NCBI RefSeq assembly: GCF_029227855.1 | Contig: NZ_CP074356.1 | Length of the DNA stretch: 64,000 bases | Strand: one strand, 5' to 3' | Source of the DNA: Escherichia coli | GTDB taxonomy: Bacteria; Pseudomonadota; Gammaproteobacteria; Enterobacterales; Enterobacteriaceae | Part shown: one piece after another, positions 3,619 through 29,313 of the stretch | How positions within the stretch are numbered: position 1 is the stretch's first letter | How the letters are laid out: every line of letters begins with the position of its first letter | The notes under the pieces: generated by a model | The model's input: the letters and a program-made list of their open reading frames with translations, nothing else | Told to the model about the DNA's origin: nothing | Databases searched by the model: none | Position numbers and translations under genes: made by a program

Positions 3619-3956
3619 CGCGGGAAATGCAGTTTGTCATGCGGCTTGCCCGGGAGTTCCGACGGGCAGACTGGCGGCGGATGCTGTCGGAAATGTCGGC
3701 CACTGAGCTTGGTGAGTGGGGCGATTATTTCCGGATGCAGAGCTTCAGTGATGTGTGGATGGATGCGCAGTTTGCCTCGCTGAAGGCATTGATCGTGAGA
3801 ATGGTGTCCGGCAGCAGTGATGCTGCGGTGGCTGATTTCAGCCTTTTACCGGAAGAGAACGGGATACCGGAGCGAACGGACGAAGAACTGATGCATCTTG
3901 GGGAAGGTATTTCCGGAGGTGTGCGTTATGGACCAGATAGCCAACCTGGTCATTGA
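3594..3956 (+). CDS. T-frame extension of the G-T fusion chaperone (reached by -1 frameshift from G)
   Basis: The -1 frame is open from 3594 and overlaps the last 8 codons of G; candidate slip site GGAAAAG at 3606-3612. Confidence 0.65.
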   Translation, partial: GADAGKVLTREMQFVMRLAREFRRADWRRMLSEMSATELGEWGDYFRMQSFSDVWMDAQFASLKALIVRMVSGSSDAAVADFSLLPEENGIPERTDEELMHLGEGISGGVRYGPDSQPGH

Positions 3957-8769: not shown

Positions 8770-9308
8770 AAACGGGGGCTGAAGCCATCCGGGCGCTGGC
8801 CACACAGCTCCCGGCGTTTCGTCAGAAACTGAGCGACGGCTGGTATCAGGTACGGATTGCCGGGCGTGATACAGGTGAAACGGAATTATCAGCCCGTCTT
8901 AATGAACCGCTGGCAAATGGTGCTGTGATCCATATCGTGCCGCGTCTGGCAGGAGCCAAAAGTGGCGGTGTGTTTCAGGCTGTGCTGGGGGCGGCTGTTA
9001 TGGCGGTTGCTATATGGATGCCGGGGGTAGGAATTATGGCGAGTAATCTGCTGTTTTCTCTCGGTGCCAGTATGACGCTTGGCGGTGTTGCACAGATGCT
9101 GGCCCCTAAACCCAAAACCCCCCGCACACAGACAACGGATAACGGCAAACAGAACACCTATTTTTCTTCACTGGATAATATGGTTGCCCAGGGCAATGTT
9201 CTGCCCGTTCTGTACGGTGAAATGCGCGTGGGATCACGTGTGGTATCTCAGGAGATCAGCACAGCAGATGAAGGTGATGGTGGTCAGGTTGTGGTGATTG
9301 GTCGCTGA
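8667..9308 (+). CDS. Tail assembly protein (lambda gpI-like)
   Basis: 213 aa; N-terminal ubiquitin-like region, hydrophobic Gly/Ala-rich middle, C-terminus ISTADEGDGGQVVVIGR. Confidence 0.85.
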   Translation: MAATHTLPLASPGMARICLYGDLQRFGRRIDLRVKTGAEAIRALATQLPAFRQKLSDGWYQVRIAGRDTGETELSARLNEPLANGAVIHIVPRLAGAKSGGVFQAVLGAAVMAVAIWMPGVGIMASNLLFSLGASMTLGGVAQMLAPKPKTPRTQTTDNGKQNTYFSSLDNMVAQGNVLPVLYGEMRVGSRVVSQEISTADEGDGGQVVVIGR

Positions 9309-9368
9309 TGAAAAACGTTTTATGTGAAACCGCCTCCGGGCGGTTTTATCGTTTATGGAGCATGACGA

Positions 9369-12300
9369 ATGGGTAAAGGCAGCAGTAAGGGGCATACCCC
9401 GCGCGAAGCGAAGGACAACCTGAAGTCCACGCAGCTGCTGAGTGTGATCGATGCCATCAGCGAAGGGCCGGTTGAAGGTCCGGTGGATGGATTAAAAAGC
9501 GTGCTGCTGAACAGTACGCCGGTGCTGGACAGTGAGGGGAATACCAATATATCCGGCGTCACGGTGGTGTTCCGGGCCGGTGAGCAGGAGCAGACTCCGC
9601 CGGAGGGATTTGAATCCTCCGGTTCCGAGACGGTGCTGGGTACGGAAGTGAAATATGACACGCCGATCACCCGCACCATCACGTCGGCAAACATCGACCG
9701 TCTGCGCTTTACCTTCGGTGTGCAGGCACTGGTGGAAACCACCTCAAAGGGGGACAGGAATCCATCGGAAGTCCGCCTGCTGGTTCAGATACAACGTAAC
9801 GGTGGCTGGGTGACGGAAAAAGACATCACCATTAAGGGTAAAACCACCTCGCAGTATCTGGCCTCAGTGGTGGTGGATAACCTGCCGCCGCGCCCGTTTA
9901 ATATCCGGATGCGCAGGATGACGCCGGACAGCACCACAGACCAGCTGCAGAACAAAACGCTCTGGTCGTCATACACCGAAATCATCGATGTGAAACAGTG
10001 CTACCCGAACACGGCACTGGTCGGCGTGCAGGTGGACTCGGAGCAGTTCGGCAGCCAGCAGGTGAGCCGTAATTATCATCTGCGAGGGCGTATTCTGCAG
10101 GTGCCGTCGAACTATAACCCGCAGACGCGGCAATACAGCGGTATCTGGGACGGGACGTTTAAACCGGCATACAGCAACAACATGGCCTGGTGTCTGTGGG
10201 ATATGCTGACCCATCCGCGCTACGGCATGGGGAAGCGTCTCGGTGCGGCGGATGTGGACAAATGGGCGCTGTATGTCATCGGCCAGAATTGCGACCAGTC
10301 GGTGCCGGATGGCTTTGGTGGCACGGAGCCGCGCATCACCTGTAATGCCTGGCTGACCACGCAGCGCAAGGCGTGGGATGTGCTCAGTGATTTCTGCTCG
10401 GCGATGCGCTGTATGCCGGTATGGAACGGGCAGACGCTGACGTTCGTGCAGGACCGGCCATCGGATAAGGTGTGGACCTATAACCGCAGTAATGTGGTGA
10501 TGCCGGATGATGGCGCGCCGTTCCGCTACAGCTTCAGCGCCCTGAAGGACCGTCATAATGCCGTTGAGGTGAACTGGATTGACCCGAATAACGGCTGGGA
10601 GACGGCGACAGAGCTTGTGGAGGACACGCAGGCCATTGCCCGTTACGGTCGTAACGTCACGAAGATGGATGCCTTTGGCTGTACCAGCCGGGGGCAGGCA
10701 CACCGCGCCGGGCTGTGGCTGATTAAAACAGAACTGCTGGAAACGCAGACCGTGGATTTCAGCGTCGGCGCAGAAGGGCTTCGCCATGTACCGGGCGATG
10801 TTATTGAAATCTGTGATGATGACTATGCCGGTATCAGCACCGGTGGTCGTGTGCTGGCGGTGAACAGCCAGACCCGGACGCTGACGCTCGACCGTGAAAT
10901 CACGCTGCCATCCTCCGGTACCACGCTGATAAGCCTGGTTGACGGAAGTGGCAATCCGGTCAGCGTGGAGGTTCAGTCCGTCACCGACGGCGTGAAGGTA
11001 AAAGTGAGCCGTGTTCCTGACGGTGTTGCTGAATACAGCGTATGGGGGCTGAAGCTGCCGACGCTGCGCCAGCGACTGTTCCGCTGCGTGAGTATCCGTG
11101 AGAACGACGACGGCACGTATGCCATCACCGCCGTGCAGCATGTGCCGGAAAAAGAGGCCATCGTGGATAACGGGGCGCACTTTGACGGCGAACAGAGTGG
11201 CACGGTGAATGGTGTCACGCCGCCAGCGGTGCAGCACCTGACCGCAGAAGTCACTGCAGACAGCGGGGAATATCAGGTGCTGGCGCGCTGGGATACGCCG
11301 AAGGTGGTGAAGGGTGTGAGCTTTATGCTTCGCCTGACCGTGGCAGCGGATGACGGCAGTGAGCGGCTGGTCAGCACGGCCCGGACGACGGAAACCACAT
11401 ACCGCTTCAGGCAGCTGGCGCTGGGAAGCTACAGGCTGACAGTCCGGGCGGCAAATGCCTGGGGGCAGCAGGGCGATCCTGCATCGGTATCGTTCCGGAT
11501 TGCCGCACCGGCAGCGCCGTCGCGGATTGAGCTGACGCCGGGCTATTTTCAGATAACCGCCACGCCCCATCTTGCCGTTTATGATCCGACGGTACAGTTT
11601 GAGTTCTGGTTCTCGGAAAAGCGGATTGCGGATATCAGGCAGGTTGAAACTACAGCCCGCTATCTTGGCACGGCGCTGTACTGGATAGCTGCCAGTATCA
11701 ATATCAAACCGGGCCATGATTATTATTTTTACATCCGCAGTGTGAACACCGTTGGCAAATCGGCATTTGTGGAGGCTGTTGGCCAGCCGAGTGATGATGC
11801 ATCCGGCTATCTGGATTTTTTCAAAGGCGAGATAGGGAAAAGCCATCTGGCTCAGGAGCTGTGGACGCAGATTGATAACGGTCAGCTTGCGCCTGACCTG
11901 GCTGAAATCAGGACGTCCATTACGGATGTCAGCAATGAAATCACGCAGACCGTCAATAAGAAACTGGAAGACCAGAGTGCGGCAATCCAGCAGATACAGA
12001 AGGTTCAGGTTGATACAAATAATAACCTGAACAGCATGTGGGCTGTGAAGCTGCAGCAGATGCAGGACGGACGCCTTTATATCGCGGGTATTGGTGCCGG
12101 TATTGAGAATACCCCTGACGGTATGCAGAGTCAGGTGCTGCTGGCGGCGGACAGGATTGCGATGATTAATCCTGCGAATGGCAACACAAAACCGATGTTT
12201 GTTGGTCAGGGCGATCAGATATTCATGAACGAAGTGTTCCTGAAATATCTGACGGCTCCCACCATTACCAGCGGCGGTAATCCTCCGGCATTTTCCCTGA

Positions 12301-12848
12301 CACCGGACGGGCGGCTGACGGCGAAAAATGCCGATATTAGCGGTAACGTGAATGCGAACTCCGGGACGCTCAACAACGTCACGATTAACGAGAACTGCCG
12401 GGTTCTGGGAAAACTGTCCGCGAACCAGATTGAAGGCGATCTCGTTAAAACAGTGGGCAAAGCTTTCCCCCGGGACTCCCGTGCACCGGAACGGTGGCCA
12501 TCAGGGACCATTACCGTCAGGGTTTATGACGATCAGCCGTTTGACCGGCAGATTGTTATTCCGGCGGTGGCATTCAGCGGCGCTAAACATGAGAGAGAGC
12601 ATACTGATATTTACTCCTCATGCCGTCTGATAGTGCGGAAAAACGGTGCTGAAATTTATAACCGTACCGCGCTGGATAATACGCTGATTTACAGTGGCGT
12701 TATTGATATGCCTGCCGGTCACGGTCACATGACGCTGGAGTTTTCGGTGTCAGCATGGCTGGTAAATGACTGGTATCCCACAGCAAGTATCAGCGATCTG
12801 CTGGTTGTGGTGATGAAGAAAGCCACCGCAGGCATCAGTATCAGCTGA
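9369..12848 (+). CDS. Host specificity / central tail fibre protein (lambda gpJ-like)
   Basis: 1159 aa; the first ~800 aa match recalled lambda J closely; the C-terminal ~300 aa differ. Confidence 0.95.
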
Positions 12849-12867
12849 ATTTTATAACCCATATACG

Positions 12868-12892
12868 GGCGCCAGAAATGGCGCCTTTTTTA
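12868..12892 (+). terminator. Intrinsic terminator after J
   Basis: GGCGCC-AGAAAT-GGCGCC hairpin followed by TTTTTTT. Confidence 0.6.
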
Positions 12893-12915
12893 TTGCAGAA
12901 AAGCGAGAGGTAATT

Positions 12916-13515
12916 ATGCGTAAAGTTTGTGCCGCCATTTTTTCCGCAGCCATTTGTCTGGCCGTATCCGGTGCGCCTGCATGGGCATCTGAACATCAGT
13001 CCACGCTGAGCGCGGGGTATCTTCATGCCTCGACGAACGTTCCCGGCAGCGATGATCTGAACGGGATTAACGTGAAATACCGTTATGAGTTTACGGACAC
13101 ACTGGGGATGGTGACGTCATTCAGCTATGCAGGAGACAAGAATCGCCAGCTTACCCGTTACAGCGATACCCGCTGGCATGAAGATTCCGTGCGTAACCGC
13201 TGGTTCAGCGTGATGGTGGGGCCGTCTGTGCGCGTGAATGAATGGTTCAGCGCGTATGCGATGGCGGGTATGGCTTACAGCCGTGTTTCGACTTTCTCCG
13301 GAGATTATATCCGCGTAACTGACAACAAGGGGAAAACGCACGATGTGCTGACCGGAAGTGATGACGGTCGCCACAGCGACACGTCTCTGGCATGGGGGGC
13401 TGGCGTGCAGTTTAACCCGACCGAATCCGTGGCCATTGATATTGCTTATGAAGGTTCCGGCAGTGGCGACTGGCGCACTGACGGTTTCATCGTTGGTGTC
13501 GGTTATAAATTCTGA
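12916..13515 (+). CDS. lom: Lom-like outer membrane beta-barrel protein (Ail/PagC/OmpX family)
   Basis: 199 aa with signal peptide, alternating aromatic beta strands and terminal Phe; sits after J as in lambda. Confidence 0.9.
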
Positions 13516-13541
13516 TTAGCCAGGTAACACAGTGTTATGAC

Positions 13542-13569
13542 AGCCCGCCGGTTCAGGCGGGCTTTTTTG
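13542..13569 (+). terminator. Intrinsic terminator after lom
   Basis: AGCCCGCC-GGTTCAG-GCGGGCT hairpin followed by TTTTTT. Confidence 0.6.
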
Positions 13570-14272
13570 TGCACAGAAAACCCCCAGCTAGGCTGGGGGT
13601 TCCGGAAAGCTTTCAGCTTTGAGCCAGTTATTAAAACCCCTTTTGATTTGTTAAAACACTTTGCGGTCTGGCAACTGCAAGTGTCAAACAAGAAATCAAA
13701 AGGGGGTCCCAATGGGGAACGAAAAGAGCTTAGCGCACACCCGATGGAACTGTAAATATCACATAGTTTTTGCGCCAAAATACCGAAGACAGGTGTTCTA
13801 CAGAGAGAAGCGTAGAGCAATAGGCAGTATTTTGAGAAAGCTGTGTGAGTGGAAAAGCGTACGGATTCTGGAAGCTGAATGCTGTGCAGATCATATCCAT
13901 ATGCTTGTGGAGATCCCGCCCAAAATGAGCGTATCCGGGTTTATGGGATATCTGAAAGGGAAAAGCAGTCTGATGCTTTACGAGCAGTTTGGTGATTTGA
14001 AATTCAAATACAGGAACAGGGAGTTCTGGTGCAGAGGGTACTACGTCGATACAGTGGGTAAGAACACGGCGAAGATACAGGATTACATAAAGCACCAGCT
14101 TGAAGAGGATAAAATGGGAGAGCAGTTATCGATTCCCTATCCGGGCAGCCCGTTTACGGGCCGTAAGTAACGAAGTTGGATGCAAATGTCAGATCGTGTG
14201 CGCCTGTTAGGGCGCGGCTGGTAAGAGAGCCTTATAGGCGCATTTGAAAAACCTCCGGCTATGCCGGAGGAT
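13568..14272 (+). mobile_element. IS200-type insertion sequence (IS200/IS605 family); boundaries approximate
   Basis: About 0.7 kb, a single Y1 transposase gene, left-end hairpin AAAACCCCCAGC-TAG-GCTGGGGGTT and a second stem-loop over the tnpA ribosome binding site. Confidence 0.65.
13712..14170 (+). CDS. tnpA: IS200-type transposase TnpA (HuH Y1 transposase)
   Basis: 152 aa with an HxH-type motif (HIHMLVEI) and the usual IS200 TnpA length. Confidence 0.85.
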   Translation: MGNEKSLAHTRWNCKYHIVFAPKYRRQVFYREKRRAIGSILRKLCEWKSVRILEAECCADHIHMLVEIPPKMSVSGFMGYLKGKSSLMLYEQFGDLKFKYRNREFWCRGYYVDTVGKNTAKIQDYIKHQLEEDKMGEQLSIPYPGSPFTGRK

Positions 14273-14290
14273 ATTTATTGTGGAGTGGAT

Positions 14291-16696
14291 ATGGCAGCAG
14301 TAAAAATCTCAGGTGTGCTGAAAGATGGTGCGGGAAAACCAATACAGAACTGCACTATTCAACTGAAGGCAAAGCGTAACAGCACCACGGTACTGGTGAA
14401 CACGGTGGCTTCTGAAAATCCGGATGAAGCCGGACGTTACAGCATGGATGTTGAGTATGGCCAGTACAGCGTCACCCTGCTGGTTGAAGGTTTTCCGCCT
14501 TCACATGCCGGGACCATTACCGTCTATGAAGGCTCCAGACCAGGTACGCTGAATGATTTTCTCGGTGCCATGACGGAAGATGATGTCATGCCGGAGGCAT
14601 TGCGTCGTTTTGAGGCAATGGTGGAAGAAGTGGCACGCAACGCCGAAGCCGCCTCTCAGAGCGCAGCGGCGGCAAAGAAATCCGAAACTGCAGCGGCATC
14701 ATCAAAGAACGCGGCGAAAACCTCAGAAACGAATGCAGCTAATAGTGCACAGGCGGCAGCGACCTCAAAGACTGCATCGGCAAACTCCGCGACAGCAGCC
14801 AAAAAATCAGAAACCAACGCGAAAAATAGCGAGACAGCCGCAAAGACGAGCGAAACCAACGCAAAGTCCAGCCAGACGGCAGCGAAAACCAGCGAAACGA
14901 ATGCCAAAGCCAGTGAAACTGCGGCAAAAAACAGCCAGGTTGCAGCAGCCCAAAGCGAGAGCGCGGCAGCCGGTTCTGCGACTTCAGCAGCTGGATCAGC
15001 AACTGCTGCGGCTAACAGCCAGAAAGCTGCGAAGACGAGTGAAACTAACGCAAAGTCCAGCCAGACGGCAGCGAAGACCAGCGAAACGAATGCCAAAGCC
15101 AGTGAAACTGCGGCGAAAAGCAGTCAGGATGCAGCGGCCCAAAGCGAGAGTGCCGCAGCCAGTTCTGCAAGCGCGGCGGCTGCTTCTGCCACTGCATCAG
15201 CCAACAGTCAAAAAGCAGCAAAAACCAGTGAAACCAACGCAAAGGCGAGCGAGACTGCGGCGGCGAACTCGGCGCAAGCATCGGCAGCAAGCCAGACAGC
15301 AGCTAAAGCAAGTGAAGACGCAGCCAGAGAGTATGCAAGCCAGGCAGCGGAGCCGTATAAATATGTCTTACAGCCACTGCCTGATGTGTGGATACCGTTT
15401 AACGATTCACTGGATATGATTACGGGCTTTTCGCCATCATATAAAAAAATTGTTATTGGCGACGATGAAATAACAATGCCTGGCGACAAGATTGTAAAGT
15501 TTAAACGCGCATCGAAAGCAACTTACATTAATAAATCTGGTGTGCTGACAGAGGCTGCCATTGACGAGCCACGATTTGAACGTGATGGCCTGCTTATTGA
15601 GGGGCAAAGAACTAACCTGCTAATCAATTCAACAAATCCGACTAAATGGAACAAGTCGTCAAATATGATCTTAAGTGCATCAGGTGTAGATGATTTCGGA
15701 TTCCAGTACGCAAAATTTACATTAAAACCAGAAATGGTAGGGCAAATTTCAGCGATTAACATAGTAACCGTTTCCGGCAGTAAAGGTTTTGATGTAACAG
15801 GCGGAGAAAAGTATGTAACCATATCATGCAGGGTGCAAAGTGGCACTCCAAATTTAAGATGCCGATTACGATTTGAAAACTATGATGGTTCTACCTACAC
15901 ATTCTTAGGTGACGCTTACTTAAATACGACAGATTTATCTATTGATAAGACGGGTGGTGCCGCTAATCGCATTACTGCAAGGGCTGTTAAAGATGAAGCA
16001 AGCAAATGGATCTTTTTTGAGGCGACAATTAAGGCACTTGATACAGAAAATATGATAGGTGGAATGGTTCAGTATGCCCCGGCAAAAGGAGTGGGCACTG
16101 GCGCGGATGATTATATTTATATTGCGACCCCTCAAGTTGAAGGTGGGGCGTGCGCTTCATCGTTTATTATAACAGGCGCATCCCCTGTAACACGCGCCAG
16201 CGATATTGTAACGGTCCCCATTTCTCTAAATTGGTGCAATCCCGCTATTAGTTCATTAGCAGAAGTTAATACCAATTGGGATGAATCGCCAAACAAAGAA
16301 GGTAGCGCACGTATTCTTAATATTTCCACTACGGGAGATACAACTGAAATTGCAGATGAAAGTTATATGTATTTGGGGTATACATCTTTGGGAGCACGCG
16401 CAATCATTACAAATGGTAAAGGCACTAAAATAGAATATAAAAGCGTTATAGAACGACCAGAGAGAAAAAGCATTATCGGCTTTAGATTCACAGAAAGTCG
16501 AGAATTGTGTGTTGTGGTTAACGGTAATATTGGTGCTAAGGTGGTTTCTCCTTATAAAAAACACAAATATACAGGAGGCTTCATTAATATTGGTGGTCAA
16601 TCATCATCCGGCAACCGTCACCTATTTGGACACGTTCGAAATCTGCGTATTTGGCACAAGGCATTGACTGATGCTCAGATGGGGGAGTCAATCTAA
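14291..16696 (+). CDS. stf: Side tail fibre protein: lambda Stf-like N-terminus, Ala/Ser/Thr-rich repeats, divergent C-terminus with LamG/concanavalin-like domain
   Basis: The first ~130 aa match recalled lambda Stf (MAVKISGVLKDG..QNCTIQLKAKRNSTT); the C-terminal region is AT-rich and ends in a LamG-type motif (NLRIWHKALTDAQM). Confidence 0.9.
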   Translation: MAAVKISGVLKDGAGKPIQNCTIQLKAKRNSTTVLVNTVASENPDEAGRYSMDVEYGQYSVTLLVEGFPPSHAGTITVYEGSRPGTLNDFLGAMTEDDVMPEALRRFEAMVEEVARNAEAASQSAAAAKKSETAAASSKNAAKTSETNAANSAQAAATSKTASANSATAAKKSETNAKNSETAAKTSETNAKSSQTAAKTSETNAKASETAAKNSQVAAAQSESAAAGSATSAAGSATAAANSQKAAKTSETNAKSSQTAAKTSETNAKASETAAKSSQDAAAQSESAAASSASAAAASATASANSQKAAKTSETNAKASETAAANSAQASAASQTAAKASEDAAREYASQAAEPYKYVLQPLPDVWIPFNDSLDMITGFSPSYKKIVIGDDEITMPGDKIVKFKRASKATYINKSGVLTEAAIDEPRFERDGLLIEGQRTNLLINSTNPTKWNKSSNMILSASGVDDFGFQYAKFTLKPEMVGQISAINIVTVSGSKGFDVTGGEKYVTISCRVQSGTPNLRCRLRFENYDGSTYTFLGDAYLNTTDLSIDKTGGAANRITARAVKDEASKWIFFEATIKALDTENMIGGMVQYAPAKGVGTGADDYIYIATPQVEGGACASSFIITGASPVTRASDIVTVPISLNWCNPAISSLAEVNTNWDESPNKEGSARILNISTTGDTTEIADESYMYLGYTSLGARAIITNGKGTKIEYKSVIERPERKSIIGFRFTESRELCVVVNGNIGAKVVSPYKKHKYTGGFINIGGQSSSGNRHLFGHVRNLRIWHKALTDAQMGESI
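14837..15214 (+). repeat. In-frame tandem duplication, 2 x 189 bp (63 aa each), inside stf
   Basis: Two near-identical 63-aa units (AAKTSETNAKSSQTAAKTSETNAKASETAAK...ANSQK) within a wider 9-aa periodic region. Confidence 0.8.
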
Positions 16697-16977
16697 TGAA
16701 AGATTTAACACTCAAATTTGCCGACAGGGCCGATTTTTCGGCCTTTATGGGAAGTATTGGCTATTATAATGACGAGTCGATGCAGGATGATATTCTGATT
16801 GATGTGATAGGTAACGTGTACAAAGAAACCGGAGAGCTGACTGAAGATGGCGAACCGGTATGTGTTAAGGAAGATGGATATTTTGTAAACGTGCGCATCA
16901 TTAAGGATACGCAAATATCGTCATTATTCGATGAATACGCGGTTGCTGTTGAGCATCAACTTCGTGGCTGGATGTGA
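16696..16977 (+). CDS. Hypothetical small acidic protein, translationally coupled to stf
   Basis: 93-aa ORF whose ATG overlaps the stf stop (TAATG); AT-rich; no family recognised. Confidence 0.5.
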   Translation: MKDLTLKFADRADFSAFMGSIGYYNDESMQDDILIDVIGNVYKETGELTEDGEPVCVKEDGYFVNVRIIKDTQISSLFDEYAVAVEHQLRGWM

Positions 16978-16986
16978 GGTAGAGAA

Positions 16987-17691
16987 ATGGCTACATCAAC
17001 AGTAATTCCGGGAGACATCACCACGCTGAAGGGAGATGTTAGTAAAGCAAAGGAAGATATTTCCTCTATTAACGGAAAAGTATCAACGCTTCAGACTGAT
17101 ATGGCCAGTGCAAAGCAGGATATCAGCACCAGATACACAAAAACTGAAGTTGATAATAAGCTGAAAAACAAAGTGGAAGTGAACGATCTGGAAAGTGGTC
17201 GTTATGGCGGAGATTTTTACCCGCTGACTGGCCGTGAAGCGTTTTATTTATGGGGATTGGGCACAACTACAGCGGCGGCAAATCTTTATCTTAATCCTGA
17301 CCCTGCAATTTCGTCTGTGCTGCGGTCAACATCGTCTATCCGCTATAAACATTCAGTAGAGACGATAGATTCAGAGCACGCCGATCTCATTTTCAGGATG
17401 CGCCCTGTGTGGTACAGGTCGCAATGCGAAAATGACAGGCGTGACTGGGGATTCTATGGATTGATTGCCGAGGAAGTTGGAGAAATTGCCCCTCAGTTTG
17501 TTCACTGGCGACCAGCCAACGAAGATGATGCACCGGAAACCATTTCCAGCAATGGCCTTGTTGCCGAAGGTGTAATGTACGAACGTCTGGTTGTTCCACT
17601 GATTCACCATATCCAGAAGCTGACTGAAAGAGTTGATGAACTTGAGTCAGAATTAAAGTTGTTATCCGTTTCCCGAAGCGATATCGGATAA
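16987..17691 (+). CDS. Short fibre-like protein: N-terminal coiled coil plus C-terminal intramolecular-chaperone (Peptidase S74-like) domain
   Basis: 234 aa; heptad-like N-terminus; C-terminal region has S-x-x-R-x-K (SSIRYKH), RPVWYR and GLIAEEV motifs resembling endosialidase chaperone domains. Confidence 0.55.
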   Translation: MATSTVIPGDITTLKGDVSKAKEDISSINGKVSTLQTDMASAKQDISTRYTKTEVDNKLKNKVEVNDLESGRYGGDFYPLTGREAFYLWGLGTTTAAANLYLNPDPAISSVLRSTSSIRYKHSVETIDSEHADLIFRMRPVWYRSQCENDRRDWGFYGLIAEEVGEIAPQFVHWRPANEDDAPETISSNGLVAEGVMYERLVVPLIHHIQKLTERVDELESELKLLSVSRSDIG

Positions 17692-17701
17692 AGGAGGCGT
17701 A

Positions 17702-17995
17702 ATGGATATAACACCTTTCCTTCATGCACTTTGTGCTGTGGCTGCGCAGGTACTGGTTGGTCTTTTTACCGGAAACTGGGCTTACGGGGCGATAGCTGGT
17801 TGTACGTTCTTCATTGCGCGTGAACATACCCAGGCAGAATATCGCTGGATTGAAATGTTCGGGCATGGCAAGCGTATGAATATGCCGTGGTGGGGCGGTT
17901 TTGATCCGCGTGCGTGGGATGTGGCAAGCCTGATGGATTTTGCTGTGCCGGTGGTGGCGTGTCTGCTGGTCTGGCTGTTGGTTAATCGTGGGTGA
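17702..17995 (+). CDS. Hypothetical small membrane protein (2-3 predicted TM segments)
   Basis: 97-aa ORF with hydrophobic stretches; GGAGG Shine-Dalgarno upstream. Confidence 0.45.
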   Translation: MDITPFLHALCAVAAQVLVGLFTGNWAYGAIAGCTFFIAREHTQAEYRWIEMFGHGKRMNMPWWGGFDPRAWDVASLMDFAVPVVACLLVWLLVNRG

Positions 17996-18005
17996 AAAAA
18001 GGTGA

Positions 18006-18125
18006 GCTGTATATGCAACGGAGGAAGAAACCTCGTTGCGGGAAGCCTTGAAGAAGTATCGGGTGTTGCTGAACCGTGTTGATACGTCAACTGCACAGGA
18101 TATTGAATGGCCAGCACTGCCGTAG
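18006..18125 (+). pseudogene. tfa: Tail fibre assembly (Tfa) gene remnant: only the conserved C-terminal ~39 codons
   Basis: Translation [29 protein letters not shown] matches the conserved Tfa C-terminus; the frame closes at a stop just upstream at 18003-18005. Confidence 0.55.
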
Positions 18126-18222
18126 GGTAAAACATATAAATTCTATAATTAGATGTATCTTTCCATTTACGGCAAGGAAGGGGGCTTGGAAGACGTAAGG
18201 CATCTCACACCGAGATTATTTT

Positions 18223-18813
18223 TTATATGTCAGGTGTCTGAAGTTTTGCTTTGGCTCTTAAAATGGTTTGCCGCGAGGTTTTGAATTCCCGGGCAATGGC
18301 ACTTATACTTACACCTGACTTAATCCGTTCGAATACCACCTGTTTCTGTTCTTCATTTAACACAGGTGGTCGACCAAAACGTTTCCCTGCGCCCCGGGCT
18401 CTTACTATCCCGGAATGAGTGCGTTCAAGTAAAAGGTCTCGTTCAAATTCAGCGACTGCTGAAATTACTTGCATCATCATTTTTCCTGTTGGACTGGTCA
18501 GGTCAATGCCCCCCAATGCTAAGCAATGCACTCTGATACCTGTTTCGGTCAGTTGTTCCACTGTTTTCCTGATATCCATTGCATTACAACCAAGGCGATC
18601 CAGTTTTGTCACAATCAATTGATCACCACATTTCAGGCGAGCAAGCAACCGGTTAAAACCAGGACGCTCACTGGTTGCTGCTGAGCCGCTAATGTGTTCT
18701 TCGATTATTTGCTGAGGTTTGATTTTAAAACCTGCACTTTCGATTTCCCGGCGTTGATTTTCGGTGGTCTGATCCAGCGTTGATATCCGACAGTAAGCAA
18801 AAATTCGAGACAT
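18223..18813 (-). CDS. pinQ: Serine recombinase / DNA invertase (PinQ/PinR-like)
   Basis: 196 aa; N-terminal catalytic region (YCRISTLDQ) and C-terminal helix-turn-helix; convergent with the tfa remnant, next to ydfK. Confidence 0.85.
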
Positions 18814-19129
18814 AGTGAGACTCTATACGAAATTGGTGTTCATATCATAATGCATCTCAGAAAATAATTTTGATTATTTTTTTGCATGTTTGTATGTACA
18901 CGTTCGAAAATAAACGAATGCGTATGCAACCCCGTAATTTTGGTGAGACCCAAAATCGATTTTGTGAAAAATGGCTTTAACTCGGTTTGTTTTTCGAGTT
19001 CCGGGCGGACTCAAGGAAGAAGAATAGTGTTGCGTGTTATTTTAACCAGATTTCAAGTTGTTTGGTCGTGGAAAAGTGGAGCAAAATGTTGTTAAAGTGG
19101 AAAAATGATAAAAAAGTAAGTTTATTATA

Positions 19130-19363
19130 TTACATTTTACCATTTAAATTTTGGTTGTCTTTAAGAACTGATATCGCTGTTTGTAATAATTCTTTGTTAT
19201 CCAGCCATGATTTGTTCTTTATGTTTCCTTCAATGTAATCAAGCAATGTTCTGGTATTGATAGGTCTTCCCTGTTTTGCTACTTCCACTACAGCATCCCC
19301 TAGGATAATTCTGACTTCAGGAAGCTGCGCAGGGAACCACTTTAGGGTGTCTTTTGATTTCAT
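19130..19363 (-). CDS. ydfK: Small prophage protein YdfK/YnaE-like
   Basis: 77 aa from the internal Met (MKSKDTLKWF...), matching the recalled YdfK length and its position next to pin. Confidence 0.55.
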   Translation of the reverse strand: MKSKDTLKWFPAQLPEVRIILGDAVVEVAKQGRPINTRTLLDYIEGNIKNKSWLDNKELLQTAISVLKDNQNLNGKM

Positions 19364-20147
19364 GAATATATTCCTTAAAATATTATTGATTTTCATTGCG
19401 ATATTGTATGTCTGATTCAGGATATGTTGACTTATACATCGGTTTTGTCTGGGTTATTGGATATGCCAATCCCTAATTTTATTAGAGCATGACTAAAAAT
19501 GCTGAATATGATAAGGAGCGAAGTGATTATCAGTATGCTGTTCATATAGCCTCGAATTAGTAATGTGTTATATATGATATAGTTGACAATTTTTATCCTG
19601 GGTGTTCTTAAAGTTCGTAGATAAACATTGTCGTTTCAGGTATACAGGAATGCTAACAGATGGCGGCAAAAATCAGGCGGTTTATGGCGCAAGCTGAAGT
19701 GGCAACTGCAAACTATCTTATGCAGAGACTCTACACGGATTGGGTTTAAAAGTATACATAGATAACAGTTTTTATCTGAAGAAGAAAAATATCAAGGTGA
19801 TATAGCCTATATGCCTTTGATGCGGAGGAATGAATGTGATGGGAGTGATGTATCTGAATAGTTGAAAAACCGCAGACACGCCTTATGCAAGAACGTGCTG
19901 CGGTTGGCTGGTAAATTTTTCGATAGTGCGAGTATTGAATGATTTCCAGCCGTTATTGATTTTACGCGTAACTCCATGAAAAAACTACTTATCTGTTGAG
20001 GAGTTTTTTGGGGCATATATGGGACAGAAATAGGCCCCAGATAGACACTGAGATCGAACTTAGGATGCTTTTTAAAAAATGCAACTATCTGAAAAAACCT
20101 AGAAAACGCCAAGGAAACCACAGGATGGGAAAAAACACCTGTGAATT

Positions 20148-21431
20148 ATGGATTTCCAGTTATATTCGCTCGGCGCAGCGTTAGTGTTTCATGAAATATT
20201 TTTTCCTGAATCATCAACGGCAATGGCGTTAATTCTGGCAATGGGAACCTACGGTGCAGGTTATGTGGCGCGTATTGTCGGAGCATTTATTTTCGGCAAA
20301 ATGGGCGACAGAATCGGGCGTAAAAAAGTGCTCTTTATTACCATCACCATGATGGGGATCTGTACCACCTTAATTGGTGTGCTGCCGACCTATGCACAAA
20401 TTGGTGTGTTTGCGCCAATTTTGCTGGTGACGCTGCGTATTATTCAGGGGCTGGGGGCAGGCGCGGAAATTTCCGGTGCCGGCACGATGCTGGCGGAATA
20501 TGCACCAAAAGGTAAGCGCGGAATTATCTCCTCATTTGTTGCTATGGGGACTAACTGCGGAACCTTGAGCGCAACGGCAATCTGGGCCTTTATGTTCTTC
20601 ATTCTCAGTAAAGAGGAACTGCTGGCGTGGGGATGGCGTATACCGTTCCTGGCGAGCGTTGTCGTGATGGTCTTTGCTATCTGGTTGCGTATGAATCTGA
20701 AAGAAAGCCCGGTCTTTGAGAAGGTTAACGACAGCAACCAACCGACAGCAAAACCTGCACCTGCTGGTAGCATGTTCCAGAGCAAATCCTTCTGGCTGGC
20801 AACAGGGCTGCGTTTTGGTCAGGCTGGTAACTCCGGTTTAATTCAGACTTTCCTTGCAGGCTATTTAGTGCAGACGTTATTGTTTAACAAAGCAATTCCA
20901 ACAGATGCATTGATGATCAGTTCGATTCTCGGCTTTATGACCATTCCGTTCCTTGGTTGGTTATCCGATAAAATTGGTCGCCGGATCCCGTATATTATTA
21001 TGAATACCTCTGCGATTGTGCTGGCGTGGCCAATGCTTTCTATCATCGTAGATAAAAGCTATGCCCCGAGCACCATTATGGTTGCACTGATTGTGATTCA
21101 TAACTGTGCGGTGCTGGGATTATTTGCTCTGGAAAACATTACCATGGCAGAAATGTTCGGCTGTAAAAACCGCTTTACCCGGATGGCTATTTCTAAAGAA
21201 ATTGGTGGTCTTATCGCTTCCGGTTTTGGTCCTATCCTGGCGGGTATTTTCTGCACCATGACGGAATCCTGGTATCCGATCGCCATTATGATCATGGCAT
21301 ATTCAGTGATTGGTTTAATCTCTGCGCTGAAAATGCCAGAAGTGAAAGACCGTGATTTAAGTGCGCTGGAAGACGCTGCGGAAGATCAACCGCGTGTTGT
21401 CAGAGCTGCGCAACCTTCCAGAAGTCTTTAA
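20148..21431 (+). CDS. ydfJ: MFS metabolite:H+ symporter YdfJ, N-terminally truncated at the prophage junction
   Basis: Frame opens right after a TGA at 20142-20144 and starts within the first transmembrane region, so about 20-30 N-terminal residues are missing. Confidence 0.8.
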   Translation: MDFQLYSLGAALVFHEIFFPESSTAMALILAMGTYGAGYVARIVGAFIFGKMGDRIGRKKVLFITITMMGICTTLIGVLPTYAQIGVFAPILLVTLRIIQGLGAGAEISGAGTMLAEYAPKGKRGIISSFVAMGTNCGTLSATAIWAFMFFILSKEELLAWGWRIPFLASVVVMVFAIWLRMNLKESPVFEKVNDSNQPTAKPAPAGSMFQSKSFWLATGLRFGQAGNSGLIQTFLAGYLVQTLLFNKAIPTDALMISSILGFMTIPFLGWLSDKIGRRIPYIIMNTSAIVLAWPMLSIIVDKSYAPSTIMVALIVIHNCAVLGLFALENITMAEMFGCKNRFTRMAISKEIGGLIASGFGPILAGIFCTMTESWYPIAIMIMAYSVIGLISALKMPEVKDRDLSALEDAAEDQPRVVRAAQPSRSL

Positions 21432-21519
21432 ATCCTCAATCCCTTCTCTTACCGGAGAGGGGATTTTTATTCATATAACAAAACATGTAGCTTGCCATAT
21501 TTATGTTTAAGGAATTGTT

Positions 21520-22980
21520 ATGGGAAATAATTTGTTATCAGCAAAAGCGACACTCCCTGTTTATGATCGTAATAACCTGGCCCCAAGAATTGTTCATTTA
21601 GGCTTTGGTGCATTTCACCGTGCGCATCAGGGCGTGTATGCCGATATTCTTGCTACAAAACATTTCAGTGATTGGGGATATTATGAGGTCAACTTAATCG
21701 GCGGCGAACAGCAAATTGCCGATTTACAACAGCAAGATAATCTTTATACCGTTGCGGAAATGTCGGCCGATGCGTGGACGGCTCGCGTCGTTGGCGTCGT
21801 TAAAAAAGCCTTGCACATACAAATAGATGGCTTAGAAACCGTGCTGGCTGCGATGTGTGAACCGCAAATCGCGATTGTCTCTCTGACAATCACCGAAAAA
21901 GGGTATTTCCACTCTCCGGCGACCGGACAGTTAATGCTCGATCACCCGATGGTCGTTGCCGACGTACAAAATCCCCACCAGCCGAAAACTGCAACAGGGG
22001 TGATTGTCGAGGCGCTGGCTCGCCGTAAAGCGGCAGGACTTCCCGCATTTACCGTCATGTCATGTGACAACATGCCAGAAAACGGTCATGTTATGCGTGA
22101 CGTTGTCACTTCCTACGCGCAAGCTGTTGATGTAAAACTGGCACAATGGATCGAAGAAAACGTGACTTTCCCATCAACAATGGTGGACCGTATTGTGCCC
22201 GCAGTGACAGAGGATACGCTGGCGAAAATCGAACAACTTACCGGTGTGCGCGATCCTGCTGGCGTTGCCTGTGAACCTTTCCGCCAGTGGGTAATAGAAG
22301 ATAACTTTGTTGCCGGACGTCCGGAATGGGAAAAAGCGGGAGCCGAACTGGTTAGTGATGTGCTGCCTTATGAAGAGATGAAGTTGCGCATGCTCAACGG
22401 CAGTCATTCATTCCTGGCGTATCTGGGGTATCTTGCCGGATATCAGCACATTAATGACTGTATGGAAGATGAACATTATCGTCATGCAGCGTATGCCTTG
22501 ATGTTGCAGGAACAAGCGCCGACGTTGAAAGTGCAGGGCGTTGATTTGCAAGATTACGCTAACCGATTAATTGAACGCTATAGCAACCCGGCGCTACGTC
22601 ATCGAACCTGGCAGATTGCGATGGATGGCAGCCAGAAATTGCCACAGCGGATGTTGGATTCTGTTCGCTGGCATCTGGCGCATGACAGCAAGTTCGATCT
22701 GCTGGCGCTGGGCGTCGCAGGTTGGATGCGTTATGTCGGTGGTGTTGATGAACAGGGAAATCCGATAGAAATCAGTGACCCACTGTTACCTGTTATTCAG
22801 AAGGCTGTACAAAGTAGTGCCGAAGGGAAAGCGCGCGTCCAGTCATTGCTGGCGATTAAGGCGATCTTTGGTGATGATTTGCCAGACAATAGCTTGTTTA
22901 CTGCAAAAGTGACGGAAGCGTACTTGTCTTTATTAGCGCATGGTGCGAAAGCGACCGTGGCGAAATATTCCGTGAAGTAA
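21520..22980 (+). CDS. ydfI: Mannitol dehydrogenase-family oxidoreductase YdfI
   Basis: 486 aa with an N-terminal Rossmann fold ([14 protein letters not shown]). Confidence 0.9.
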
Positions 22981-28999: not shown

Positions 29000-29039
29000 G
29001 CTCCGTTTAACATTCATTGAGAAAACTGATGCTACTGTG

Positions 29040-29147
29040 TCAACGATCCGTTATCAGTGCAGGAAAATGCCTGTTAGCGTAAAAGCAAAACACAAATCTA
29101 TCCATGCAAGCATTCACCGCCGGTTTACTGGCGGTTTTTTTTTGCCG
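29040..29147 (+). ncRNA. mgrR: Candidate MgrR-type small RNA; 5' end uncertain
   Basis: Strong intrinsic terminator (CACCGCCGG-TTTACT-GGCGG plus 9 T) about 120 nt after the dgcZ stop, in the dgcZ-mgtS gap where mgrR is expected. Confidence 0.3.
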
Positions 29148-29217
29148 TCATAAAAATCAGGCCCCTTGTACACAACTGTAACAAGGGGCCGGTTAGGTGA
29201 GGGATTATCTCCGTTCA

Positions 29218-29313
29218 TTAGTCATCCCATTTGTGGCTGAAATACGCGGCCAGAAAACCAGAAAATAAAATTATTCCCAGTACGGCCATAAAAACATTCA
29301 TATTACCCAGCAT
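29218..29313 (-). CDS. mgtS: Small membrane protein MgtS (YneM), 31 aa
   Basis: Hand translation gives MLGNMNVFMAVLGIILFSGFLAAYFSHKWDD with a GGAGG Shine-Dalgarno upstream and a hairpin terminator downstream; not in the supplied ORF track. Confidence 0.8.
   Translation of the reverse strand: MLGNMNVFMAVLGIILFSGFLAAYFSHKWDD

Follow-up and report, generated by a model that had tools for sequence, protein, structure and literature searches.

The tail-fibre region of a lambdoid prophage of Escherichia coli, integrated in ydfJ (the Qin site of K-12), ends in a piece of tfa that is not a working gene, and this raises the question of how the rest of tfa came to be replaced and why its 3′ end is still in place. 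The answer could lie in decay of a resident gene, in inversion by the neighbouring serine DNA invertase or in exchange of a fibre module. The prophage was analysed within a single 64-kb stretch of DNA, called the window here, and was compared with other prophage and phage loci (numbered L001 to L017).

Identity and extent of the tfa remnant

The remnant lies at 18003–18125 of the window on the + strand and consists of about 120 bases from the 3′ end of tfa, the gene for the tail-fibre assembly protein (chaperone). Translation of 17997–18125 (+) gives stops at 18003–18005 and 18123–18125, and remnant residues 4–39 align with positions 95–130 of the 131 positions of the Pfam family PF02413 (Caudo_TAP) at 51.7 bits (E 1.2e-13; gathering cut-off 22.1 bits). 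When K-12 TfaQ (191 aa) was used in a tblastn search, residues 156–191 matched window 18015–18122 at 91.7% identity (E 9e-16) and residues 1–155 had no match in any of the six frames of the 64-kb window, the next best match having E > 2. As TfaQ 1–155 is absent from every frame, there is no frameshifted full-length tfa in the window, and a displaced copy was likewise ruled out since residues 156–191 alone were returned. The sequence-only reading of this locus had named a translation unlike Tfa and a hidden frameshifted tfa as the findings that would count against it; the translation proved to be that of Tfa (PF02413, E 1.2e-13) and tblastn gave the single match to residues 156–191.

Where the homology begins depends on how the DNA is aligned. 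Without gaps, K-12 tfaQ and tfaR match from 18014 onwards (96.8–98%) and the alignment to tfaQ of strain 537-20 (L005) begins at 18015, which had been read as a breakpoint at 18014/15 preceded by a 14-nt ‘filler’. That reading was superseded when other tfa 3′ ends (L010, L011) were included and gapped local alignment was used, as DNA homology then runs back to 18003/4 and a 1-nt deletion at 18014/15 becomes visible (window TGAGCTGTATAT-GCAACGG versus TGAGCTGGAAATCGCAACGG in the tfa remnants of L010 and L011; intact tfa alleles read GATCTGGAAATCGCAACGG in this region). The alignment with K-12 tfaQ and tfaR that had been proposed as a check puts the breakpoint at 18014 without gaps, and the gapped alignment with the further alleles moves it to 18003/4. 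The surviving part is tfa nt 453/4–576 including the stop codon, about 40 of 191 codons, so that the loss amounts to about 79% (about four fifths) of the gene. At the protein level 36 codons are securely homologous, the first ~4 of those retained being frameshifted, and the first three residues of the translation (‘AVY’) are not Tfa residues but an out-of-frame reading of a former (D/E)-L-E-I. The earlier statement that the last ~39 codons of tfa remain in frame up to the stop at 18003–18005 therefore holds for the stops and the peptide and fails for the count (36 secure codons, with ‘AVY’ out of frame), while the statement that the N-terminal two thirds are gone is right about the loss, in that tblastn found no TfaQ 1–155, and understates the fraction, which is ~79%.

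Tfa proteins consist of a variable N-terminal fibre-binding domain and a conserved C-terminal helical domain (PMC9608196), and TfaQ 126–191 aligns with residues 112–174 of Mu U (PDB 5YVQ). The remnant comes from the conserved C-terminal helical region that is common to the Tfa family (PF02413; lambda Tfa, P2 G, Mu U), and it keeps only part of this helical (oligomerization) domain. It differs from family members in covering only 36 of the 131 profile positions, without the two-domain architecture, and in that no intact ORF follows a cognate stf; an unrelated 97-aa ORF precedes it and the distal domain of Stf is non-canonical. In the near-identical strain CFSAN061763, RefSeq/PGAP annotates the equivalent of 18015–18125 (CA897_RS11795) as ‘tail fiber assembly protein; incomplete; missing N-terminus’. 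This is the same sequence (100% identical over 17600–18900) and the feature itself is no different there, although that strain is without the window's IS200 copy between lom and stf. The remnant is a known, annotated pseudogene fragment with equivalents in many genomes, and an ordinary case of textbook tail-fibre mosaicism.

Organization of the prophage end

The head and tail genes are on the + strand upstream of J (9369–12848, +), which is followed by lom (12916–13515, +). Between the lom terminator and stf lies an IS200 copy (13572–14273) with a Y1_Tnp transposase ORF at 13709–14170 (E 3.9e-38) and an Rfam STnc490 match at 13579–13702; it is missing from CFSAN061763, which is otherwise 99.5–100% identical. 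The annotated start of stf maps to 14291 and the gene extends to 16696 (+), the start of the mechanically called 811-aa ORF (14261) falling within the inserted segment 13572–14273. The conserved 5′ part of stf (14291–15346, +) encodes the N-terminal domain (PF08400 phage_tail_N, E 5.6e-67) and an Ala/Ser-rich shaft of 7-aa repeats. In the shaft, 21-nt repeats (7-aa, KTSETNA-like) at 14706–15262 form two super-repeats of 189 nt, which share 83% identity.

A cassette begins with the distal, receptor-binding part of stf (15347–16696, +), which is non-canonical; this part matches phrog_1419 (‘tail protein’) over its full length and, weakly, the head spike fibre of RcGTA (6tb9, E 5.8e-5). Next in the cassette are a 93-aa ORF (16696–16977, +; phrog_1361, E 2.7e-44, no Pfam family), a 234-aa short fibre (16987–17691, +) with a C-terminal intramolecular chaperone domain of the S74 type (PF13884 Peptidase_S74, E 4.7e-6) and, as the last cassette gene, a 97-aa hydrophobic, membrane-like ORF (17702–17995, +; phrog_1443, E 3.5e-59). 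Residues 109–222 of the 234-aa fibre match the C-terminal end of the L-shaped tail fibre of phage T5 (8hqz, E 1.2e-7). The 93-aa ORF accompanies the cassette in L003, L004, L007, L008, L009 and phages L015–L017. The 234-aa fibre is an optional or variable member of the cassette, being absent from L003, L004 and L008 and longer in L007 and L016.

To the right of the remnant (18003–18125) is a 97-bp spacer (18126–18222), part of a resident Qin/Rac-type right arm, with one mismatch (18199) to K-12 Qin, Rac, L005, L010 and L013. The spacer is followed by a pinQ/pinR-type serine DNA invertase gene (18223–18813, −; 196 aa; PF00239 Resolvase, E 2.5e-36; HTH_7, E 3.8e-11), ydfK (19130–19396, −) and the truncated host gene ydfJ (from 20148, +), and in the PGAP annotation of CFSAN061763 ynfT lies between ydfK and ydfJ. 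The invertase protein of that strain is WP_000086527.1, which is PinR in a K-12 record though the PGAP label is pinQ. Outside the prophage, in the host chromosome, 29011–29224 (+) is a full-length Rfam match to the Hfq-binding sRNA STnc560 (281 bits).

Replacement of the distal fibre module

A prophage at the same ydfJ site in strain 537-20 (L005) has the order J, lom, a 985-aa stf, an intact 191-codon tfaQ, pinQ, ydfK, ynfT and ydfJ′, and its comparison with the window gives two arms of homology. On the left, where the homology takes in J, lom and the 5′ part of stf, 9002–13571 is 94.4% identical and 14274–14643 is 81% identical (81–84% when Rac is also compared); on the right, 18015–22000 is 98.3% identical through pinQ, ydfK and ydfJ′. 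Between the arms, at 14644–18014, there is no DNA homology to this same-site prophage. Residues 3–352 of the window's Stf are 58–60% identical to the canonical Stf of L005, K-12 StfR and L014, and beyond residue ~352 there is no similarity to the distal parts of these three proteins; this boundary (window ~15347) lies shortly past the shaft repeats. From the end of Stf similarity at ~352 together with the homology gap, the exchanged block can be placed at ~15347–18002. A foreign distal fibre domain and three ORFs (93, 234 and 97 aa) have thus replaced the distal part of a canonical Stf together with codons 1–151 of tfa, and the earlier view that unrelated sequence stands where the N-terminal part of tfa should be is borne out by the gap across 14644–18014. 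High-identity arms around a non-homologous centre are the pattern that module replacement would leave. As the left arm is only ~81% identical to L005, the window and L005 are not the actual parental pair.

The DNA of K-12 tfaQ and tfaR and of 537-20 tfaQ is 97–99% identical to the window over the final 36 codons with their stop, the spacer of 97 bp and the pin gene that converges on them, and the chromosomal context (pin, ydfK, ynfT, ydfJ′) is the same. These three genes are, however, complete (191 codons) and follow a canonical stf, whereas the window is without codons 1–151, the first ~4 codons that it does retain are frameshifted and two conserved residues are substituted. Such close agreement on the right, where K-12 Qin and Rac match the window at 98% from the remnant as far as ydfJ′, with pinQ and ydfK in between, is also what one would see if the resident tfa had simply lost its 5′ four fifths by a local deletion in situ, with no exchange of modules; degradation is, besides, frequent among prophages at the ydfJ site, and even in K-12 Qin stf is truncated. 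What lies to the left, nevertheless, is not a deleted stf–tfa: the ORFs in these ~2.7 kb are different, intact and typical of phages, and they match PHROGs over their full length. The same junction is found at other chromosomal sites and in isolated phages, and the cassette also occurs without any tfa remnant. Decay in place is extremely improbable and in effect excluded because the cassette ORFs are intact and foreign and the same join is found elsewhere.

Origin and distribution of the junction

The cassette occurs without a tfa remnant in L007 (next to thrS) and L008 (next to zinT); the sequence that they have in common with the window ends at 17999 in L007 and at 17980 in L008. As the homology to L007 ends at 17999 and tfa begins at 18003/4, the illegitimate join between cassette and tfa falls within 18000–18003. 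This junction (junction 1) is identical, including the 1-nt deletion, in the window, L001, L003, L004, L009, L015, L016 and L017, eight sequences that represent at least four chromosomal contexts and three isolated phages. The contexts include a prophage in the ompW/trp region (L003), sitD-flanked prophages (L004) and the Rac-like remnant of BL21 (L009); the phages are HannyBb (PP925841), PhiR49_1 (PV340568, L015) and Lambda_4C10 (LR595861, L017). HannyBb is 99.2% identical to the window over 17701–18900 and has the same arrangement of 97-aa ORF, remnant and invertase. Of 5426 complete E. coli genomes, 1746 contain a query spanning the junction (17850–18070, counted at a coverage of 80% or more), at a median of two and at most seven places each, but only 460 genomes have it joined to the pin-type right side. 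Since the join and its 1-nt deletion are identical wherever the cassette carries the remnant, the join arose once; it is an old illegitimate event on a widespread cassette and not an event in this genome.

A second type of scar (junction 2; L011–L013), independent of junction 1, consists of an S74-peptidase fibre gene followed by tfa from nt ~437. It lies at 3950–4130 in L011, 3025–3156 in L012 and 3025–3150 in L013, the S74-peptidase gene being a ‘pyocin knob’ tail-fibre gene, and it is common in E. coli. Its remnant begins ~16 nt further upstream in tfa than that of the window. In L011 and L013 junction 2 is at the same ydfJ site, with or without pin. Among the loci sampled there was no intact tfa with the remnant's GAGCTG variant, the intact alleles reading GATCTG; of the donor candidates, L012 and L013 proved to carry junction 2 and L014 an intact tfa with GATCTG. 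GAGCTG is shared by the window's remnant and the junction-2 remnants, and as the sampled intact alleles read GATCTG junction 1 might have formed inside a locus that was already scarred by junction 2.

The invertase gene next to the remnant

A pin-type gene lies 97 bp from the remnant and converges on it, and site-specific recombination by its product, as in the invertible segments of Mu (G), P1 (C) and e14 (P), would be one way to make such a junction, the more so as ancient stf exchanges have been attributed to invertases in the literature (PMC3945230). The window resembles these systems in having a pin-family serine invertase beside tail-fibre and tfa sequences. It is unlike Mu G/gin, P1 C/cin and e14 P/pin in that there are no crossover sites and no inverted second copy, and in that pin converges on tfa instead of reading away from the segment. 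The 26-bp hix/gix/cix-type consensus pattern TTNTCNNAAACCNNGGTTTNNGANAA had no match in the 64 kb with up to three mismatches. No second, inverted stf′ or tfa′ copy was found in the window, the only tfa-like match being that on the + strand, and the inverted repeats in 13000–20500 are only 16–19-nt pairs with 82–94% complementarity, estimated to be at about chance level. In known invertible systems the crossover sites are in stf and upstream of the invertase gene, not at the 3′ end of tfa. Junction 1 is, moreover, present in loci without pin (L003, L004, L009, L015 and L017). An origin by Pin is rejected on the want of a hix/gix-like site and the chance-level inverted repeats, and can be given practically no credence. 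The invertase itself appears to be an orphan, because no crossover-site-like sequence or invertible segment was found nearby.

Crossovers within the remnant

The remnant was next aligned in 16 sequences, picked from ranked match lists, over 17990–18140. The 3′ half (from ~18081) falls into discrete types, which track the downstream DNA and not the type of junction. The pin-type 3′ end is identical in sequences with junction 1 (window, L001, HannyBb), junction 2 (L013) and intact tfa (537-20, K-12 tfaQ and tfaR). An IS1-truncated copy (L010) shares only the last ~28 bp before the stop with the pin type and has seven differences in 18081–18097. Junction 2 (L011, L012) and intact tfa (L014) share a type ending in ...NTTTAPDIEWPVAPIG*. 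The junction-1 loci L003 and PhiR49_1 have a third type, which is similar there to the second tfa remnant that these loci carry further downstream. The right sides found with junction 1 are pin-type, MTase-type, sit-truncated and BL21-truncated, and at least two 3′-end types occur with each of junction 1, junction 2 and intact tfa. As each left state occurs with at least two right states and vice versa, this alignment of 16 sequences requires repeated crossovers inside the remnant, within the ~80 bp from the junction to 18081. The proposal that modules are exchanged at the conserved 3′ end of tfa is supported by both the replacement pattern against L005 and the mosaic across the 16 sequences.

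Phage lambda acquires Rac and Qin DNA by homologous recombination across stf–tfa (De Paepe et al. 2014, PMC3945230), and in one third of the Rac recombinants the crossover was in the 95% homology region of tfa (PMC3945230). By analogy, the mosaic of the remnant would be the natural counterpart of this lambda × Rac/Qin experiment. The two are alike in the genes, the prophage ends and the kind of event involved and in having crossovers in the conserved part of tfa. They differ in that both partners in PMC3945230 had a full stf–tfa, whereas the right arm here is ~120 bp of tfa with the downstream DNA and the material exchanged is a non-homologous fibre cassette.

Coding capacity of the remnant

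The remnant has an in-frame TGA at 18003–18005, no ATG and the frame-breaking 1-nt deletion at 18014/15. It also carries two derived substitutions, 18040 T>G (Leu>Arg), in the window lineage and common to HannyBb, and 18049 G>T (Trp>Leu), which among the aligned sequences is found only in the window and CFSAN061763; the substituted Leu and Trp are both conserved between TfaQ and Mu U. In L004 and Lambda_4C10 (L017) the Trp is replaced by Arg and everything past 18071 is lost. The 3′ truncation differs by locus, being at 18071 by sitD and at ~18120 in BL21, where the stop region is lost. Identity to L003 is 91.8% for the remnant versus 94.4% for the 97-aa ORF, and the corresponding values for L004 are 92.8% versus 96.2%, so the remnant is no better conserved than the ORF that adjoins it. 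As it keeps only 36 of 131 profile positions and has neither a start codon nor the N-terminal domain that binds the fibre, it cannot act as a chaperone, and it is predicted to be non-functional and not to be expressed as one.

Expression in another form would require either a 29-aa peptide initiated at TTG 18036 or recoding from the 97-aa ORF, with the C-terminal (oligomerization) function of Tfa kept. A GGAGG at 18020–18024 does lie 11 nt 5′ of the in-frame TTG, the stop of the 97-aa ORF is followed by an A7 run and there are short families with this terminal motif in PHROGs (phrog_2341, phrog_3792). The GGAGG, however, consists of Thr-Glu-Glu coding bases that are also found inside intact tfa, and fusion to the 97-aa ORF requires readthrough of TGA 17993–17995 and then a frame shift past TGA 18003–18005. 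A peptide of this kind would also have the conserved Trp and Leu replaced, a 3′ end that is cut differently at other loci and no N-terminal fibre-binding domain, and we regard its expression as most unlikely. The A7 run itself (TGAAAAAAAGG), which comes directly after the stop of the 97-aa ORF (17993–18002 with the stop), is like an A-AAA-AAG slippery heptamer; recoding there seems unlikely because the run is past the stop and the other frames close quickly.

The remnant as a possible cis-acting element or linker

If the remnant is not expressed, selection might still maintain it for a role in cis (as terminator, RNA element or dedicated recombination linker), in which case it would not be a passive scar. 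Viable phages and a third of E. coli genomes still carry it, the two independent junction types retain nearly the same extent of tfa (from nt ~437 and nt ~453), and in L003 and L015 two remnants flank one cargo gene. Yet it is less conserved than the adjoining ORF and is freely truncated, and persistence is equally expected of a neutral remnant that is repeatedly overwritten via intact copies of tfa in the genome; the 3′ end of tfa is carried by 5102 of 5426 complete E. coli genomes. Selection on such an element therefore seems distinctly unlikely. A terminator or structured RNA in the remnant or spacer was rejected, as there was no terminator-like site and no Rfam family in either and RNA folding of remnant and spacer gave nothing unusual (z −0.5, −0.7 and +0.3).

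Rather doubtful, in our estimate, is the more specific proposal that the remnant is a maintained ‘linker’, a common docking sequence of E. coli lambdoid phages at which fibre cassettes are swapped on the left and cargo (sitABCD, methyltransferase, omptin, pin) is acquired and stacked on the right. If true, this would explain both the similar tfa extent of the two junctions and the duplicated remnants around PhiR49_1-type cargo. We do not favour it, given that the remnant is conserved no better than the neighbouring ORF and is open to truncation. In the papers searched we found nothing specific to tfa remnants and nothing on ‘exchangeable effector loci’ with a tail fibre.

Two arrangements of cargo were seen beyond the remnant. 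In PhiR49_1 (L015, 5800–7020) and L003 (5026–6194) two direct tfa 3′ remnants flank a gene on the opposite strand for a YbcY-like SAM methyltransferase; PhiR49_1 has more cargo, including an omptin gene, beyond the two remnants, and in L003 the sequence just past the stop of each remnant is also similar. This arrangement suggests that cargo may be stacked by unequal exchange between tfa ends. In Lambda_4C10 (L017, 4383–7848) and L004 (5082–8547) the sitABCD iron/manganese transporter operon abuts the remnant, which is cut at the equivalent of 18071, and as Lambda_4C10 is the genome of an isolated lambda-like phage sitABCD is phage cargo there.

Discussion

We think it very likely that the tail-fibre cassette of this lambdoid prophage at ydfJ is a replacement with the tfa remnant as its right edge, and that it was joined to tfa once and then spread by homologous recombination. 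A single illegitimate join would have linked tfa nt ~453 to the end of a fibre cassette that does not depend on Tfa, and the cassette would then have moved among lambdoid phages and prophages by homologous recombination of the RecA or Red type, with the conserved 5′ part of stf as the left arm and the tfa 3′ remnant with the downstream DNA (here into pinQ) as the right arm. Tfa would be dispensable if the new fibre tips do not use it, and it could presumably be lost because the 234-aa fibre has its own S74 chaperone and the Stf tip belongs to another fold family. The side fibres of the cassette would accordingly assemble without Tfa. HannyBb, an isolated phage with the 97-aa ORF–remnant–invertase arrangement, was counted for the dispensability of Tfa, though lambda-type phages are viable without any side fibres.

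Taken alone the remnant matters little, being a correctly spotted fragment that standard annotation had already flagged and an illustration of the mosaic evolution that has long been known in the tail-fibre regions of phages. Its modest value is as a precise landmark. A very common alternative cassette, found in a third of complete E. coli genomes as well as in isolated temperate phages, has its right boundary here, and the variable cargo region at the end of the prophage begins here too, so that the remnant may be of use in calling prophage boundaries, in typing host-range cassettes and in designing tail-fibre swaps in lambda-like vectors.
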